Source: a virus (lineage: Duplodnaviria > Heunggongvirae > Uroviricota > Caudoviricetes). Taken from it: 12,777 nucleotides of DNA. The notes below the pieces were generated by a model. The model worked only from the letters and a program-made list of their open reading frames with translations, made no database searches and was not told the origin of the DNA. The stretch is from IMG/VR virus record IMGVR_UViG_2579778842_000009; one strand, written 5' to 3'. Made by a program: the position numbers and the translations under genes. Shown here one piece after another: positions 2,687-10,572 of the stretch. Numbering within the stretch: the first letter of the stretch is position 1; each line of letters opens with the position of its first letter.

Positions 2687-4372
2687 GTGAATATAAACGT
2701 CGCCGAATTGTTAAATGGGAATTACATTCTGTTATTATTTGTGGTCCTCGCGCTTGGGCTATGTCTCGGAAAGTTACGACTTGGTTCGATCCAACTGGGT
2801 AATTCCATTGGCGTTTTAGTCGTATCGCTGTTATTAGGCCAACAACATTTCAGCATTAACACCGATGCGCTTAATCTTGGCTTTATGCTGTTTATTTTCT
2901 GTGTTGGGGTTGAAGCCGGACCGAACTTTTTTTCCATTTTTTTTCGCGATGGGAAAAATTACCTAATGTTAGCACTGGTGATGGTTGGCAGTGCGCTGGT
3001 GATCGCCTTAGGGTTAGGTAAGCTGTTTGGCTGGGATATTGGCCTGACGGCCGGTATGTTAGCAGGCTCTATGACGTCGACACCGGTTCTGGTCGGTGCT
3101 GGCGATACACTGCGTCATTCCGGCATGGAAAGCAGGCAGCTCTCACTGGCACTGGATAATCTGAGCCTCGGGTATGCCTTAACCTATTTAATCGGTCTGG
3201 TGAGTTTGATTGTTGGTGCGCGTTACTTGCCGAAATTGCAGCATCAGGACTTACAGACCAGCGCCCAGCAAATCGCCCGCGAACGTGGCCTGGACACTGA
3301 TGCCAACCGTAAGGTTTATTTACCGGTGATCCGCGCCTATCGCGTCGGCCCGGAGCTGGTGGCCTGGACCGACGGCAAAAATCTGCGTGAACTGGGTATT
3401 TATCGACAAACCGGCTGCTACATTGAACGTATTCGACGTAACGGGATTCTGGCAAATCCAGACGGTGATGCCGTGCTACAAATGGGCGATGAAATAGCGT
3501 TGGTAGGCTATCCCGACGCCCATGCCCGACTCGATCCCAGCTTCCGTAACGGTAAAGAAGTTTTCGATCGTGACCTTCTCGACATGCGTATCGTCACTGA
3601 AGAAGTGGTCGTTAAAAACCATAACGCTGTAGGTAAACGTCTCGCACAACTGAAGTTGACCGATCACGGTTGCTTCCTTAACCGCGTCATTCGTAGCCAG
3701 ATTGAGATGCCGATAGATGACAACGTCGTGCTTAACAAAGGTGACGTTTTACAAGTCAGCGGTGATGCCCGTCGCGTAAAAACCATCGCCGATCGCATCG
3801 GCTTTATCTCGATTCACAGCCAGGTCACTGACCTGCTGGCATTTTGCGCCTTCTTTGTTATTGGGCTGATGATCGGGATGATCACCTTCCAGTTCAGCAC
3901 ATTCAGTTTCGGCATGGGGAACGCTGCCGGGTTGTTATTCGCCGGAATTATGCTGGGCTTTATGCGTGCTAACCACCCGACCTTCGGTTACATTCCGCAG
4001 GGTGCATTAAGCATGGTGAAAGAGTTCGGCTTGATGGTGTTTATGGCAGGCGTTGGTCTGAGCGCCGGTAGCGGTATTAATAACGGCCTGGGCGCGATTG
4101 GCGGTCAGATGTTGATTGCCGGATTGATTGTCAGTCTGGTGCCCGTGGTTATCTGTTTCTTGTTCGGTGCTTATGTATTGCGAATGAACCGCGCGCTGTT
4201 GTTCGGCGCAATGATGGGCGCACGTACCTGCGCGCCGGCAATGGAGATCATCAGTGATACAGCTCGCAGTAACATCCCGGCGCTGGGCTATGCGGGCACC
4301 TATGCAATCGCCAACGTCCTGCTGACGCTGGCAGGGACAATCATCGTCATGGTATGGCCAGGATTAGGATAA
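2687..4372 (+). CDS. ybjL: Putative transport protein YbjL (AAE-family transporter with two central TrkA-C/RCK-C-like domains)
   Basis: 561-aa ORF with GTG start ([29 protein letters not shown]...), hydrophobic N- and C-terminal halves and a soluble middle, matching E. coli YbjL. Confidence 0.9.
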
Positions 4373-4484
4373 AACTGAAGTTGCCCTGAAAATGAAATTT
4401 TTTTGCACAACCGCAGAACTTTTCCGCAGGGCATCAGTCTTAATTAGTGCCACTGCTTTTCTTTGATGTCCCCATTTTGTGGAG

Positions 4485-4530
4485 CCCATCAACCCCGCCA
4501 TTTCGGTTCAAGGTTGATGGGTTTTTTGTT
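4485..4530 (+). terminator. Candidate rho-independent terminator downstream of ybjL, on the host side of the prophage junction
   Basis: Perfect 10-bp stem CCCATCAACC (4485-4494) and GGTTGATGGG (4512-4521), followed by TTTTTTGTT. The 17-nt loop is long but can form an inner CCG/CGG pair. Confidence 0.5.
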
Positions 4531-4607
4531 GCCTGAAATTTAAGATGTTTAAAATCATGATGTTAGAAGCACTGTTTTTTAACGATGGCGACAAAATGGC
4601 GGCAGCG

Positions 4608-4826
4608 TCAAAGAGAGAGCGCCACCTGTCCTGATTTCATTGGATGCGGCTGAACTGGATTCGACTCTTTTGGTGTTGCAATCGAACGAACAAAAGTTTC
4701 ATGGGTAACAAAAGTATGGCTGCAGTTAATGTTCTGGCACTGGTTATAACGCTCTTTGGTCAATGAAGATACCTGAAAACTGCTGCGAGTATGGGCGGCA
4801 CTTCCACACAGTGGGCAAATCATCAT
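4608..4826 (-). CDS. ogr: Ogr/Delta-family zinc-finger late-gene transcriptional activator
   Basis: MMICPLCGSAAHTRSSFQVSSLTKERYNQCQNINCSHTFVTHETFVRSIATPKESNPVQPHPMKSGQVALSL has the CxxC...CxxxxC zinc finger and resembles P2 Ogr (72 aa). GGGGAGA ribosome-binding site lies about 9 nt upstream of ATG 4826. The longest ORF extends to 4859 (MNLAKMGRTRK...) but that extension is probably untranslated. Confidence 0.8.
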   Translation of the reverse strand: MMICPLCGSAAHTRSSFQVSSLTKERYNQCQNINCSHTFVTHETFVRSIATPKESNPVQPHPMKSGQVALSL

Positions 4827-4863
4827 TTTTCGAGTTCTCCCCATTTTTGCTAAATTCACAACA

Positions 4864-6017: not shown

Positions 6018-6499
6018 GACAGCAGCCCTCCCACCGTTTTACTGATATCGCTTAAGGCAGACGTTGCCGTGTCCTGCAGATTATTCAGTTGCGCACTGAG
6101 ATCACCGAACATATCGGACAGGGATTCATCCACTCGTTTGAGCGACAGGGTGAACTCAATCCGGCGCGGCATACCGTCGCGGAAAAACTCCGTTTTAGTC
6201 TGATTCAGTCCCTCAATCACATACATACCGTAAATCGTGCCGCTGCCTTCAATCAGGGGCCATGCTTTCCCCTGTTCTGCCATCTGCTCCAGTGCCAGCA
6301 ACGACAGCCTGCCGCCTGTTATCTCCGGCATAAGAACACCGGAAAGCGTCAGCATGTCGTTTTCCGGTCCCAGAAACTGCGTGGACGGACGTCGGTTTAC
6401 CCGACTGTTTGCCGCATGTCGCCAGCTGCGTTGATACTGCAGTTCCTGATACGGCACGGTGCGCAGCATAAACACGTACAATCCCAGCACCATCATCAT
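6014..6499 (-). CDS. U: P2 gpU-like tail protein
   Basis: 161-aa ORF between T and D with ATGA overlaps at both ends; size matches P2 U (which I recall as about 159 aa). Confidence 0.8.
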   Translation of the reverse strand: MMMVLGLYVFMLRTVPYQELQYQRSWRHAANSRVNRRPSTQFLGPENDMLTLSGVLMPEITGGRLSLLALEQMAEQGKAWPLIEGSGTIYGMYVIEGLNQTKTEFFRDGMPRRIEFTLSLKRVDESLSDMFGDLSAQLNNLQDTATSALSDISKTVGGLLS

Positions 6500-9400
6500 G
6501 CGTCGTATCCCCCCTGATCGCTGTAGTTACTCCTGGCTTTTGCCTTCAGCCTGCGTTCACGTTCATCAAGCTGGCGTGCCACCTCCCGAGCAATATCCTG
6601 CGCACTTTGTCCTGGCTGCGTCTGAATGATGATCTGCGTCGGTACCTCAATCCGTTGAACGAGCGGCACAGTGGCTGCGCGACTCACAATTGCTTCTCCA
6701 CCTTTCGCGGGGAGTGCCAAAGGGTGCAACGGTGGAAGCTCTGCTGGCGCGGCAGCAACGCCCATCATTCCGGCAACAACGGCAGCCAGTGCAGCTGTAT
6801 TTCTCCGGCTGGTCACATTTGCCGGGCCGTTAACAATTTCCGGCCCGTTTTCACCGACGATGCCAAACTGCCCGCGCGGGATATACCCGCCGCTGTCATA
6901 CATCCCCGCAAAGCCATACCCCCATGACGGAAAACCACCCGATGGCATCATCACTTTACCGTCTGCATTCACCGTCGCAGGTTGCTGACGCGTCACGCTT
7001 TCCGGCAGTTTTGCCTTTGCGGCCTCTTTACTGACAATGCCAAGTTTCTCCAGCAACCAGGAAACGCCGGATTTCAGGGAGTCCAGCGGATGCATGACCA
7101 TATTCAGCCCTTCCGCCAGTGCCTCTCCGAATCGCCGCCCCATTGCCGCTGCACTCTGCAGTTCGGCAGAGGTCGACTTAACGGGCGTCAGCAGATCAGT
7201 AAACCAGCCCCACAGCGCCTGTACTTTGTCGCCAATCCACTGGAACACGGGCTTAAGCGGTTCGAACGCTGCACTGACGGGACCTGCCGCCGCTTTGAAT
7301 CCTTCCACCACGCCACCAAGAAATGCGGTGATGGGTTGCCAGTATTTCCAGACAACCAGCGCCACGCCCGCCAGTGCAGTAACCACAAGACCTATCGGAC
7401 TGAGCAGAGCACCTAACAGACCAGATACGGCATACAGGGCAACGCGCAGCATCGCCAGTGGACCAGATGCCAGTACTCGCAGCACCGTGCCTGCGGCGAC
7501 CAGTCCACCGCGCAGTACCGACAGAGGATTCATAAACATCACAGCAACAGCACGTAAACCGGATAATCCAGACCGCAAAAGTGCAACCGGCGCACCTGCT
7601 ACAGTTTTCAGGGCATTTCCCGTCAGTGATGCCGTGCGGCGCAAAGACGACAACGGCGCAGTAAGTAAACCTGCTGCGTTGCCCGATGAAGCAAACCCGC
7701 GTCGCAGCAGTGCCAGTGGAGCGCCAGCCAGCCAGGACAACGCGCTGCGGGTTCGGGTTACTGCTGCCGTAACGGAAGGTAACGTTTTGATACCCAGCAC
7801 AGAGAATCCCAGACGGATCACTGCCAGCGGCCCCAGCACTGCAGCCAGCGCCACCGCTAAGGTTCCGAGGCCTACGGTAACCGCAGCCACCACAGCGGCT
7901 ACTTTCATCAGTGTGCCTGTCAGTTCCGGGTTAGCTTCCACCCAGCGGCGCAACGCCCCCGTGATGCTTTTCACCGTGTACAGAATATCCATCAGCGGCT
8001 GGCGCAGCGTTTCGCCCAGGCTGCTGAAGGTGTTCTGCGCTCCGGTTTTGACCAGCAACCACTGCGCAGAAAGTGAGTCCTTGTTAATGTCGGATTCTTT
8101 CTGCATGGAGCCGAGCGCATCATTGCCCGCTGTCAGTTTTAGCTGGCGCTGCAGTTCCGGCAGGTTGTTTGCCAGTTTCGCCGCGTCATCGCCAAACTCT
8201 TTACCAAACAACATGGTCATGGCAGACAGACGTTTATCCTGCGGCAGTGCGTTCACCTTCTCCAGTACGCGCTGGATAGTTCCCATCGCATCCTTCGTCA
8301 TCTGCTTTTCAATCACTTCAGGATTGAGTTTCAGCAGATTCATCCCTTCAAAGAAACTCTTGCTTTGCATGGTGGCAATGGACAATTCACGCACCATCGC
8401 GTTTGCTGCACTGGCTGCAACCTCCGGCGCAGCACCCAGAGTCAGGAAGGTGGAACCCAGTGCCGCCGCTTTACGATAATCCAGACGGTCAGCCACACCG
8501 CCCAGACGTTGCATCACATCGATGATGTCCGCCCCTTTCGACATGGCGTTATCATCCAGATAGTTCAGCGCATCGCCGAGCTGTTCAATATTGCGGGTAG
8601 GTATTTTGTAGAGCTGGGCGATTTTCCCCAGACTTTCTGACAGTTCATCCGCTGGCAGCTCAAAGGCTGTTGCCGCCTTTGCTGCCGTACTGGCGAAGGC
8701 CAGCAGGTCACGTTTCTGGTCTTCCCAGCTGTCGTCAGGGTTTGCGACGTTCATGCGCGCACCACCTTCAACCAGTGCAGCGAAGTCCACCGCACCGTTT
8801 TCCATCGGCAACTGTTCGCTGGCAGCCTTGATGGCATCCTGCATTTCATAAAAACGTGCAGTGCGGTTGCCATTATCGTCACGCAGACCATTGACCTGCT
8901 TTGCCACACCTTTCATGGCATCTTCCATGCTGGTATAGCTTTTTACTGCCGCCATCACTGGCGCACCCATTGCCAGCCCTGCAGCCGTGGTAGTGGCTCC
9001 GGCTCCTGCGATGCGATCGCGCACTTCAAGCCGTCTTGAGTATTGTTCTCTGGCAGCGTTCATCCGTGCCTGTTGTTCACCCAGACGTTTAAGTGCTTTT
9101 TGCTGGCCCTCCAGTGCCTGCCTTGTTTCTTCAGCATTTTTCTTAAGTTCTCGCTGGGCACTACTGAGTTGTCTGGTATCAATCCCTGATTCTTTAAGTG
9201 CCTGACGTTGTCTCTGGACCGCCCCCAACAAGCCGTTATAGGTCTGCTGAAGTTCCTGTACTCGTGTTTTGGCCTGACTGAATAACTTTGCCTGCGCGGC
9301 GGTTGGCCTGTTAGTGGCAGCAAATTGTGTGGCGAGTTTTGCCGCCTCTTCGCGGGCTGCGTTCAGGTTGTTGGCTGTTATGGCTAGTTGCGAGCGCGTC

Positions 9401-9573
9401 TTGCGAAATTCATCAATTCTGCCAGCCTGCTTATTCAGTTCTTTGAGGCTGTTTCGGGTATTCTGAATTGCGCCAGCCAGCTCTTTCGAACTGGCCTGTG
9501 CAGCACGGAATGGGCGGGTGAGTTTGTCAACCGCATTAAGAATGACCTGCAGGCGCAGGTTATTATCACTCAT
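6496..9573 (-). CDS. T: Tail tape measure protein (gpT-like), 1025 aa
   Basis: N-terminal coiled-coil-like Ala/Gln/Arg/Lys-rich region, a central run of Gly/Ala/Leu-rich hydrophobic segments, and a Gly-rich C-terminus; located between E/E' and U. Confidence 0.85.
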   Translation of the reverse strand: MSDNNLRLQVILNAVDKLTRPFRAAQASSKELAGAIQNTRNSLKELNKQAGRIDEFRKTRSQLAITANNLNAAREEAAKLATQFAATNRPTAAQAKLFSQAKTRVQELQQTYNGLLGAVQRQRQALKESGIDTRQLSSAQRELKKNAEETRQALEGQQKALKRLGEQQARMNAAREQYSRRLEVRDRIAGAGATTTAAGLAMGAPVMAAVKSYTSMEDAMKGVAKQVNGLRDDNGNRTARFYEMQDAIKAASEQLPMENGAVDFAALVEGGARMNVANPDDSWEDQKRDLLAFASTAAKAATAFELPADELSESLGKIAQLYKIPTRNIEQLGDALNYLDDNAMSKGADIIDVMQRLGGVADRLDYRKAAALGSTFLTLGAAPEVAASAANAMVRELSIATMQSKSFFEGMNLLKLNPEVIEKQMTKDAMGTIQRVLEKVNALPQDKRLSAMTMLFGKEFGDDAAKLANNLPELQRQLKLTAGNDALGSMQKESDINKDSLSAQWLLVKTGAQNTFSSLGETLRQPLMDILYTVKSITGALRRWVEANPELTGTLMKVAAVVAAVTVGLGTLAVALAAVLGPLAVIRLGFSVLGIKTLPSVTAAVTRTRSALSWLAGAPLALLRRGFASSGNAAGLLTAPLSSLRRTASLTGNALKTVAGAPVALLRSGLSGLRAVAVMFMNPLSVLRGGLVAAGTVLRVLASGPLAMLRVALYAVSGLLGALLSPIGLVVTALAGVALVVWKYWQPITAFLGGVVEGFKAAAGPVSAAFEPLKPVFQWIGDKVQALWGWFTDLLTPVKSTSAELQSAAAMGRRFGEALAEGLNMVMHPLDSLKSGVSWLLEKLGIVSKEAAKAKLPESVTRQQPATVNADGKVMMPSGGFPSWGYGFAGMYDSGGYIPRGQFGIVGENGPEIVNGPANVTSRRNTAALAAVVAGMMGVAAAPAELPPLHPLALPAKGGEAIVSRAATVPLVQRIEVPTQIIIQTQPGQSAQDIAREVARQLDERERRLKAKARSNYSDQGGYDA

Positions 9574-10002
9574 CGTTGGCCCCGCTTCTCTGAATCGCTT
9601 TATACCGCCATTCCAGCACTTCGGTCAGCGGCATAACGTCAGTAACGGATGGCGGCCAGTGAAAGATGGTGGCGATATCAGCCACCAGATCGTCAACCGT
9701 CAGGCTGTCGGTAAACCGGCAAGCACCGACTTCTTCAACAAAAAAGTGACAACCTCAACCGACATGGCAGTGAGATCTGCCGGGTCCATCTCTGCAATTT
9801 CCTGTGCAGTCAGTGCCGGACTGGAGATGCGGGGGATCACGGTCATCATCGCGTTCACATCCATATCCATAATGGCCTGCAGGCGTGTACCGCGCAGCGC
9901 ACCGGACTGCGGTTTACGCAGCACAATTTCGGTAATTTCTGTTTTACCGCGCTTGATAGGGGTATCCAGTTGAATGGTCTTTTCAGTCTGCTTATCACTC
10001 AT
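9566..10002 (-). CDS. E+E': Tail assembly chaperone E+E' fusion made by programmed -1 ribosomal frameshift
   Basis: Slippery heptamer T_TTT_TTG in the E zero frame (+ strand 9739-9745). The -1 frame stays open for about 59 codons (...FFVEEVGACRFTDSLTVDDLVADIATIFHWPPSVTDVMPLTEVLEWRYKAIQRSGANDE) and stops at TGA 9566-9568, overlapping the T start ATG by 8 nt. Confidence 0.65.
9700..10002 (-). CDS. E: Tail assembly chaperone gpE (zero-frame product)
   Basis: 100-aa ORF MSDKQTEKTIQLDTPIKRGK...VEVVTFLLKKSVLAGLPTA with an AGGA ribosome-binding site 8 nt upstream; sits between FII and T as in P2. Confidence 0.8.
   Translation of the reverse strand: MSDKQTEKTIQLDTPIKRGKTEITEIVLRKPQSGALRGTRLQAIMDMDVNAMMTVIPRISSPALTAQEIAEMDPADLTAMSVEVVTFLLKKSVLAGLPTA
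9739..9745 (-). other. -1 frameshift slippery site TTTTTTG for E/E'
   Basis: Minus strand reads GTC ACT TTT TTG TTG, an X_XXY_YYZ heptamer in the gpE frame located 13 codons before the E stop. Confidence 0.65.
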
Positions 10003-10027
10003 TTTGTTGTCCTGTAAATTGGGTTCT

Positions 10028-10045
10028 GGCGCGGAATCCCGCGCC
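10028..10045 (-). other. Intercistronic GC-rich stem-loop between FII stop and E start
   Basis: GGCGCGG, 4-nt loop, CCGCGCC: a perfect 7-bp stem beginning 11 nt after the FII stop. No T-run follows on the transcribed strand. Confidence 0.4.
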
Positions 10046-10056
10046 GTTCAGATACA

Positions 10057-10572
10057 TCAGAGGCCGAGGGCGTTGCGGTGCGCTTCCATCAGGTCCACAC
10101 CGTCCACAATTTCCACCATGTTGATAAGGTCCACTTCATAGAGCACCTCACCATTGATGGTCAGCTTCGCGTAGCTGTTGGTACTGGTCACTTTGGTGGT
10201 GTTGCTTTCGCCCGTCTTCCACTCACCGGAGTCCACTTCTTTGTGACGTCCACGCACCACAAGCTCCACGGCCTGCACTTCCCCGGTATCGTCACGCTGG
10301 ATAGAGCCGGTAAAGCGCAACTGGATGCCATCCACCGTGGCTTTGCCCATCTGCTTAAACAGCAGCAGTTCAGTGCCACCAATGGAAAATTCTGTGTCCA
10401 GCGCACTGTCATCAAGCCCCAGATCCACATCCACTGCCCCCGGCATTCCGCCGCCGCGATACTTCTCATATTTGCGGGTGAATTTCGGCAGCGTCAGCGA
10501 CTCAACGATCCCCTGCCAGTTGTTCCCGTCGTTAAACAGGTTCAGGTGTTTTAATTTGCGTGGTAAAGCCAT
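10057..10572 (-). CDS. FII: Tail tube protein (gpFII-like)
   Basis: 171-aa ORF MALPRKLKHLNLFNDGNNWQGIVESLTLPKFTRKYEKYRGGGMPGAVDVDLGLDD..., matching the size of P2 FII (which I recall as about 172 aa); lies 9 bp downstream of the FI stop. Confidence 0.9.
   Translation of the reverse strand: MALPRKLKHLNLFNDGNNWQGIVESLTLPKFTRKYEKYRGGGMPGAVDVDLGLDDSALDTEFSIGGTELLLFKQMGKATVDGIQLRFTGSIQRDDTGEVQAVELVVRGRHKEVDSGEWKTGESNTTKVTSTNSYAKLTINGEVLYEVDLINMVEIVDGVDLMEAHRNALGL

Follow-up and report, generated by a model that had tools for sequence, protein, structure and literature searches.

The setting of the ratio of two tail-assembly chaperones by a frameshift is textbook biology, conserved across tailed phages. 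According to the summary given in PMC5009743, this tail-assembly-chaperone frameshift goes back to Levin et al. (1993) and Xu et al. (2004, 2013, 2014). In phage P2, a 91-aa protein E and a 142-aa fusion E+E' are made at the heptamer TTTTTTG, as stated in the section on this site in PMC3091744. For P2, and for P2 only, the passages in PMC3091744 and PMC3931495 report that the fusion is produced at a low fixed frequency and that tail assembly requires both products. As far as the accounts of its discovery in PMC3091744, PMC3931495 and PMC5009743 go, knowledge of the feature dates from Christie et al. 2002 (J Bacteriol 184:6522) and Xu et al. 2004. It is this already known P2-type E/E+E' frameshift that is encountered here.

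The window, i.e. the whole stretch of 12,777 nt that was analysed, is the right end of a P2-like prophage of the Fels-2/Elveevirus type. The nearest phage genomes are those of Escherichia phage Cartapus (98.6% DNA identity) and of Klebsiella and Salmonella Fels-2-like phages. Read along the minus strand, the genes are invertase, FI (sheath), FII (tube), E, E', T (tape measure), U, D and ogr, and the order FI-FII-E/E'-T-U-D-ogr is that of the P2 FETUD operon. The whole E/E'/T arrangement lies on this strand, with the following features:

FI, minus strand: sheath (Pfam PF04984, 2e-32)
10057..10572, minus strand: FII, tail tube, directly upstream of E (Pfam PF04985 Phage_tube, 9e-60)
9700..10002, minus strand: gene E, tail assembly chaperone read in the zero frame, 100 aa and a stop (ORF, Pfam, PHROGs)
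9752..9756, minus strand: Shine-Dalgarno (SD)-like GAGGT, 6 nt upstream of the heptamer, a candidate weak stimulator
9739..9745, minus strand: slippery heptamer T_TTT_TTG in X_XXY_YYZ phase (codons ACT TTT TTG = T86 F87 L88)
9566..9739, minus strand: E', the -1 frame extension of 57 codons, from GTT 9739..9737 to stop TGA 9568..9566
9566..10002, minus strand: E+E' fusion coding region, predicted 145 aa (E residues 1-88 plus 57 of E')
9566..9685, minus strand: stand-alone 39-aa 'GpE family phage tail protein' CDS from GTG 9685 (PGAP, phage Cartapus)
9566..9573, minus strand: ATGAGTGA overlap of 8 nt, with the start codon of T at 9573..9571 and the stop codon of E' at 9568..9566
6496..9573, minus strand: T, tail tape measure, 1025 aa (Pfam PF10145 PhageMin_Tail, 2e-18)
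U, minus strand (Pfam PF06995, 3e-44)
D, minus strand (Pfam PF05954, 3e-27)
ogr, minus strand (Pfam PF04606, 7e-22)

T, which is annotated as the tape measure in the records of Cartapus, Fels-2 and RefSeq E. coli as well, is the presumed client of E and E+E'. Its start, ATG 9573, is the first start codon past the upstream stop and is also the one used by RefSeq. On the opposite strand, three ORFs lie over the E/E' region (9518-9973, 9388-9636 and 9974-10141); since none of them has a Pfam match, they were rejected as genes. An Rfam scan of the window returned no known frameshift element, the sole match being RybB.

Gene E runs from ATG 10002 to TGA 9702..9700. As described in an earlier note on this DNA, the gpE frame contains T_TTT_TTG (9745..9739): the first T of the heptamer is the third base of codon 86 (ACT), which places it in the canonical X_XXY_YYZ phase. 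The site lies 13 codons before the E stop, as that note had counted, with TTG as the thirteenth and 12 sense codons between it and the stop. Likewise, the -1 frame of about 59 codons announced there is made up of TTT TTT plus 57 codons, 59 in all. It closes 8 nt inside the T gene, as also claimed: T starts at ATG 9573, so the E' stop ends within ATGAGTGA. An E'/T overlap of the form ATGAGTGA or ATGAGTAA is found in most enterobacterial relatives. The predicted junction of the fusion reads ...VVTFL followed by VEEVG..., its peptide being ...VVTFLVEEVGACR, also given as ...SVEVVTFLVEEVGACR. The apparent gap between E and T (9699..9574) had been called coding and 125 bp long; the first part stands, on the Pfam match (4e-19) and the identity to P2 E' given below, while the length is in fact 126 nt, a trivial correction.

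Both frames are homologous to their P2 counterparts. E matches the Pfam family PF10109 Phage_TAC_7, described as 'tail assembly chaperone proteins E, or 41 or 14', with 67.5 bits (cut-off 25, E = 1e-18) and the PHROGs tail family phrog_103 (4e-44), and is 43% identical to P2 E. The E' extension alone matches PF06528 Phage_P2_GpE with 68.2 bits (cut-off 23, 4e-19) over model positions 1-37 of 37, as well as the tail families phrog_1756 and phrog_6416 in PHROGs, where the phrog_1756 alignment begins at the second residue of the -1 extension. An alignment of the -1 translation with P2 E', proposed earlier as a check, is ungapped over 57/57 residues with 32/57 identical (56%). The complete 145-aa fusion shares 49% identity with the 142-aa P2 E+E' (3e-51), again ungapped across the junction; the heptamer codons of E align with the P2 site, and F87 is invariant. 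When the same reconstruction was carried out on P2 as a check of the method, it gave a 142-aa fusion, equal to the published size. A tblastn search with the fusion found 416 phage records; among the matches listed, nearly all are in two pieces, corresponding to two reading frames. These include phages of Klebsiella, Burkholderia, Ralstonia, Yersinia, Escherichia and Salmonella, and further Vibrio, Pseudomonas, Mannheimia and other phages. In the PDB, no relative of the fusion was found by sequence, and NCBIfam has no model matching E or the fusion.

The slippery site and the open -1 frame are conserved. An in-phase heptamer is present in all 88 close relatives (87 fetched loci and the window), one of which ends at a contig end before the E' stop. 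Its form is TTTTTTG, apart from TTTTTTA in three of these sequences and TTTTTTT in Smp131. In a set of 41 genome loci drawn from a range of bacterial species, whose identity in E is 39-99%, the heptamer was found in 38; of the remaining three, two are cut by contig ends and in one (L123) E is disrupted upstream. Clustering at 80% identity yielded 15 lineages from gamma-, beta- and alphaproteobacteria, and a slippery heptamer is retained in 15/15 of these lineages. The conservation put forward in the earlier note thus extends to all readable relatives examined.

At the level of codon usage, the residue encoded just before the heptamer is Thr, Gly, Ser, Ala or Asn, yet its codon ends in T in 14/14 lineages with a T-run, while third-position T in neighbouring genes amounts to only 6-26%. 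Similarly, TTG makes up 0-18% of the Leu codons in neighbouring genes and occupies the slippery site in 10/15 lineages. The distance from the heptamer to the E stop ranges between 2 and 14 codons, whereas the heptamer itself is fixed in position. In the locus of an alphaproteobacterial MAG (L116), the T-run heptamer is replaced by A_AAT_TTC one codon upstream, which would give the same F-L-A-A-E junction; this variant is more readily explained by tandem tRNA slippage than by slipping along a run of T. Downstream of the site, the 18 codons from the heptamer to GTG 9685 are open in every relative, and 10/18 are identical to P2. Between the E stop and this internal start, 19 variable columns (summed over three subgroups) fall on -1-frame codon position 3, versus 8 and 6 on positions 1 and 2. 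Homology and heptamer conservation therefore agree with the P2 E/E' (lambda G/GT-type) tail-assembly-chaperone frameshift that had been suggested.

Taken together, we consider it very probable that a programmed -1 ribosomal frameshift at T_TTT_TTG yields E and E+E'. The ribosomal nature of the slip, its frequency and the chaperone roles are deduced by analogy, and the course of events would be as follows. A single start codon of E (10002) would be used, and most ribosomes would reach the E stop and release the 100-aa chaperone E. A minority would slip while decoding TTT in the P site (tRNA-Phe) and TTG in the A site (tRNA-Leu). Both tRNAs would then re-pair one base back on TTT TTT, 57 further codons would be read in the -1 frame, and the 145-aa E+E' would terminate 8 nt inside the T gene. 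For P2, Christie and colleagues reportedly arrived in 2002 at a shift frequency of roughly 10%. In E. coli reporter assays, U_UU.U_UU.G falls outside the most efficient -1 motifs (PMC4066793), so that a modest shift frequency is to be expected. By analogy with P2 and lambda G/GT (PMC5009743), the common E part would coat the tape measure T and the E' part would recruit tube subunits. A fixed slip frequency would in this way set the E:E+E' ratio for tail assembly, and by the same analogy neither E nor E+E' would be in the virion.

A different origin of E' is implied by current annotation. RefSeq/PGAP gives the locus of E. coli UMNK88, which is 100% identical, as two genes with no join, with E named 'phage tail assembly protein' (100 aa), and the same two-gene annotation is used in a PGAP plasmid record and in the Cartapus record. 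The frameshift is described or encoded in the records of Fels-2 (89% identical), 186, KS14 and Smp131. The earlier expectation that automated annotation would miss the fusion is thus borne out, although the gap is not left empty, as PGAP calls the 39-aa CDS there. Taken literally, such records would mean that E' is translated alone as a 39-aa protein from GTG 9685, with no frameshift. Three independent records annotate this protein, and an ATG or GTG occurs at the homologous position in every lineage tabulated. Against this, GTG 9685 has the weakest anti-SD complementarity among six gene starts tested (-2.5 kcal/mol) and is predicted to be part of the stem of a 7-bp hairpin (9687..9667). The uninterrupted 18 codons upstream of it with their identity to P2, the variation of that stretch mainly at -1-frame third positions, and the start of the phrog_1756 alignment at the extension's second residue all speak against it as well. 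Moreover, the conservation of the heptamer at synonymous sites would have no reason, and P2 E' lacks a ribosome-binding site according to the passage concerned in PMC3931495. Independent initiation at GTG 9685 is consequently very improbable, and the 39-aa CDS probably stands in for E' in the annotation rather than being a gene with its own initiation.

Equally improbable is a slip at the level of transcription, in which RNA polymerase would add an extra U on the T6 run and no ribosome would slip. The site is homopolymeric: it is T6 in this phage, and Smp131 and Xanthomonas prophages have T7. Appreciable transcriptional slippage in bacteria usually needs runs of about 8-9 or more, than which T6 is shorter. 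E. coli genes contain fewer U7/A7 runs than expected, for which such slippage is a possible reason (PMC4066793). The run is, however, always in X_XXY_YYZ phase, and A_AAT_TTC in the alphaproteobacterial locus is a tandem-slippage heptamer but a poor run for polymerase slippage. In addition, the parts of PMC3091744 and PMC3931495 that treat P2 describe a translational frameshift. The view that the open frame arose by chance and that the E-to-T gap is a non-coding spacer has nothing but the short ORF length in its favour and is refuted by the Pfam match (4e-19), the 56% identity to P2 E' and the conservation across proteobacterial classes, leaving it next to no probability. With the PF06528 match and a heptamer kept at synonymous sites in 15 lineages, the arrangement at T_TTT_TTG is more than a chance feature.

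RNA folding had been recommended in the earlier note for finding a stimulating structure downstream of the heptamer; none was supported. Folding of the 49 nt after the heptamer gave z = -0.68, a stability that is not significant, and neither is that of the 107 nt downstream. In eight lineages, the same downstream test gave z values from -2.06 to +1.70, with folds that differ. RNAalifold predicted 0 pairs downstream in a diverse set of 19 sequences, and the covariation term in the Fels-2 group was about 0. A conserved hairpin or pseudoknot of the dnaX or IS3 type, 5-9 nt past the heptamer, is therefore not supported. This agrees with P2, KS5, KS14 and KL3, for which the portion of PMC3091744 on these phages gives hairpins as absent. 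One candidate, a 6-bp stem GUCGGU...ACCGAC located 8 nt past the heptamer, was rejected: it has no compensatory change, and 133/500 shuffles were as good.

Upstream of the heptamer, GAGGT pairs better with the anti-SD than any other stretch of E (-6.3 kcal/mol), and its distance of 6 nt falls inside the range of 6-17 nt used for SD stimulators (PMC4066793). Candidate elements in other lineages are GGAGGTGG or AGGTGG. For the window alone, the enrichment of SD-like sequence is not significant (p = 0.105). Over 15 lineages, 6/15 reach p < 0.1, with a Fisher combined p of about 1e-4 if the lineages are assumed to be independent, and the enrichment is confounded by the conserved E/K-V-V codons of this stretch. 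The element is weak and not universal among lineages. It is a tentative and rather doubtful suggestion that some P2-like E/E' sites, of which this may be one, use an SD-like sequence a few nucleotides upstream of T_TTT_TTG as a dnaX-style stimulator; if true, this element would tune the E:E+E' ratio. In the published descriptions of P2-like sites that were found, only downstream structures had been searched for.

The locus is real but ordinary, i.e. a frameshift locus intact in a common E. coli prophage, and it is found in identical form in about 1000 of 5426 complete E. coli genomes. Its practical value lies in annotation, as current automated calls leave the two frames unjoined. Because RefSeq/PGAP has no ribosomal-slippage join, the 145-aa product is missing from protein databases built on such annotation.

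Compared to known systems outside the P2 group, the site shares its tandem-slippage heptamer type with E. coli dnaX, together with a possible upstream SD-like element. dnaX has a strong downstream hairpin and an efficiency of about 50%, in contrast to the present site with no supported downstream structure and a weak SD-like element. As in lambda G/GT, the gene for the major tail (tube) protein and that for the tape measure are separated by two overlapping ORFs. The lambda heptamer is G_GGA_AAG and hence differs from T_TTT_TTG, and lambda has a non-contractile tail, whereas the tail of the phage described here is contractile. In the lambda G/GT type, a -1 shift of low frequency joins the ORFs with no obligatory RNA stimulator, and more of the short product is made than of the long one (PMC5009743). 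According to the literature, lambda G or T has no sequence similarity to P2-type proteins (PMC3931495), and the resemblance to lambda G/GT is one of architecture and function only.

With the present locus, P2 E/E+E' shares the heptamer TTTTTTG, located on the homologous F-L codons, as well as the -1 direction, the 57-codon extension and the position between FII and T, and in both phages the E' stop overlaps the T start. The two differ past the heptamer, where 6 codons follow in P2 and 12 here, which makes E 100 aa long instead of 91 aa and extends the dual-coding overlap; T has 1025 aa compared to 815 aa in P2. Closer still are Fels-2 (STM2699 / STM2697.1) and Cartapus (Elveevirus), which are 89-99% identical at the locus. 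The Fels-2 record carries an explicit note on gpE+E' slippage, while Cartapus and RefSeq E. coli have two separate CDSs in place of the join. In the DNA itself, Fels-2 and Cartapus have an identical heptamer, tail length and overlap, and there is essentially no difference between them and the present phage at this locus.

Sequences resembling Shine-Dalgarno (SD) sites lie approximately 5-14 nt upstream of the slippery heptamer T_TTT_TTG in the tail-assembly-chaperone gene E, namely GAGGT, AGGTGG and GGAGGTGG. They occur at 9746-9770 (minus strand) in the window and at the homologous positions in the related loci L003, L007, L107, L114, L116 and L124. In 8 of the 15 lineages (separated at <80% identity), no site within E, or hardly any, matches the anti-SD more strongly than these. 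They could act as a dnaX-like stimulator of the frameshift, or could be a mere consequence of the conserved E/K-V-V codons. A hairpin is found within E', the -1 frame extension:

9667-9687, minus strand: perfect 7-bp hairpin, UGGUGGC-UGAUAUC-GCCACCA

This hairpin is encoded by the most conserved motif of E', L-V-A-D-I-A-T, and includes the GTG that annotation pipelines take as the start of a 39-aa 'GpE family' gene. At 52 nt from the heptamer, it is too distant to be a frameshift stimulator; it is probably a side effect of the palindromic A-D-I-A codons.

Two of the related loci depart from the usual arrangement. The one from an uncultured alphaproteobacterial MAG (L116:1201-1700) is without the T6 run. 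Two other sites in this locus would each yield the same fusion junction: A_AAT_TTC, in phase and one codon upstream, and G_GGG_GGC, which lies still further upstream. Judged by sequence, the slippery site seems shifted in position, not lost. In Lonsdalea britannica (L123:1201-1484), the E frame ends after 46 codons, and the -1 frame then carries on through the usual E C-terminus (...VTFLLPNSARSALPPA). Either the prophage has decayed, or the disruption of E is an indel introduced in assembly.

At the edge of the prophage, the rybB gene is flanked by a permease gene on one side and by a prophage gene on the other:

2687-4372: ybjL-like permease
4452-4530, plus strand: RybB sRNA (Rfam, 105 bits)
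4608-4859, minus strand: prophage ogr gene

In prophage-free E. coli genomes, the match to the window ends at 4530-4542, that is, at the rybB 3' end or just beyond. Because homology ends there, the rybB 3' end appears from these alignments to be the integration site, with the junction at about 4530-4542. The ogr-adjacent arrangement is present in approximately 1105 of the 5426 complete E. coli genomes compared.

The prophage junction is also found at 100% identity in NZ_CP026085.1 (3105856-3106456), a 4.83 Mb RefSeq record labelled 'E. coli DH5alpha'. Since such a junction is unexpected in a K-12 derivative, this strain label may be wrong.

Lastly, two genes set the window apart from P2:

6496-9573, minus strand: tape-measure gene T, 1025 aa
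11897-12469, minus strand: serine recombinase (Resolvase and HTH_7, 2e-52)

The Pfam domain of the tape-measure protein spans only residues 246-457. The recombinase gene, directly upstream of and adjoining the sheath gene FI, encodes a putative Hin/Gin/Cin-type invertase that may switch tail-fibre genes beyond the window end. P2 has no serine recombinase at the corresponding position, and its annotated tape-measure protein is 815 aa compared to 1025 aa here, which therefore predicts a tail longer than that of P2.
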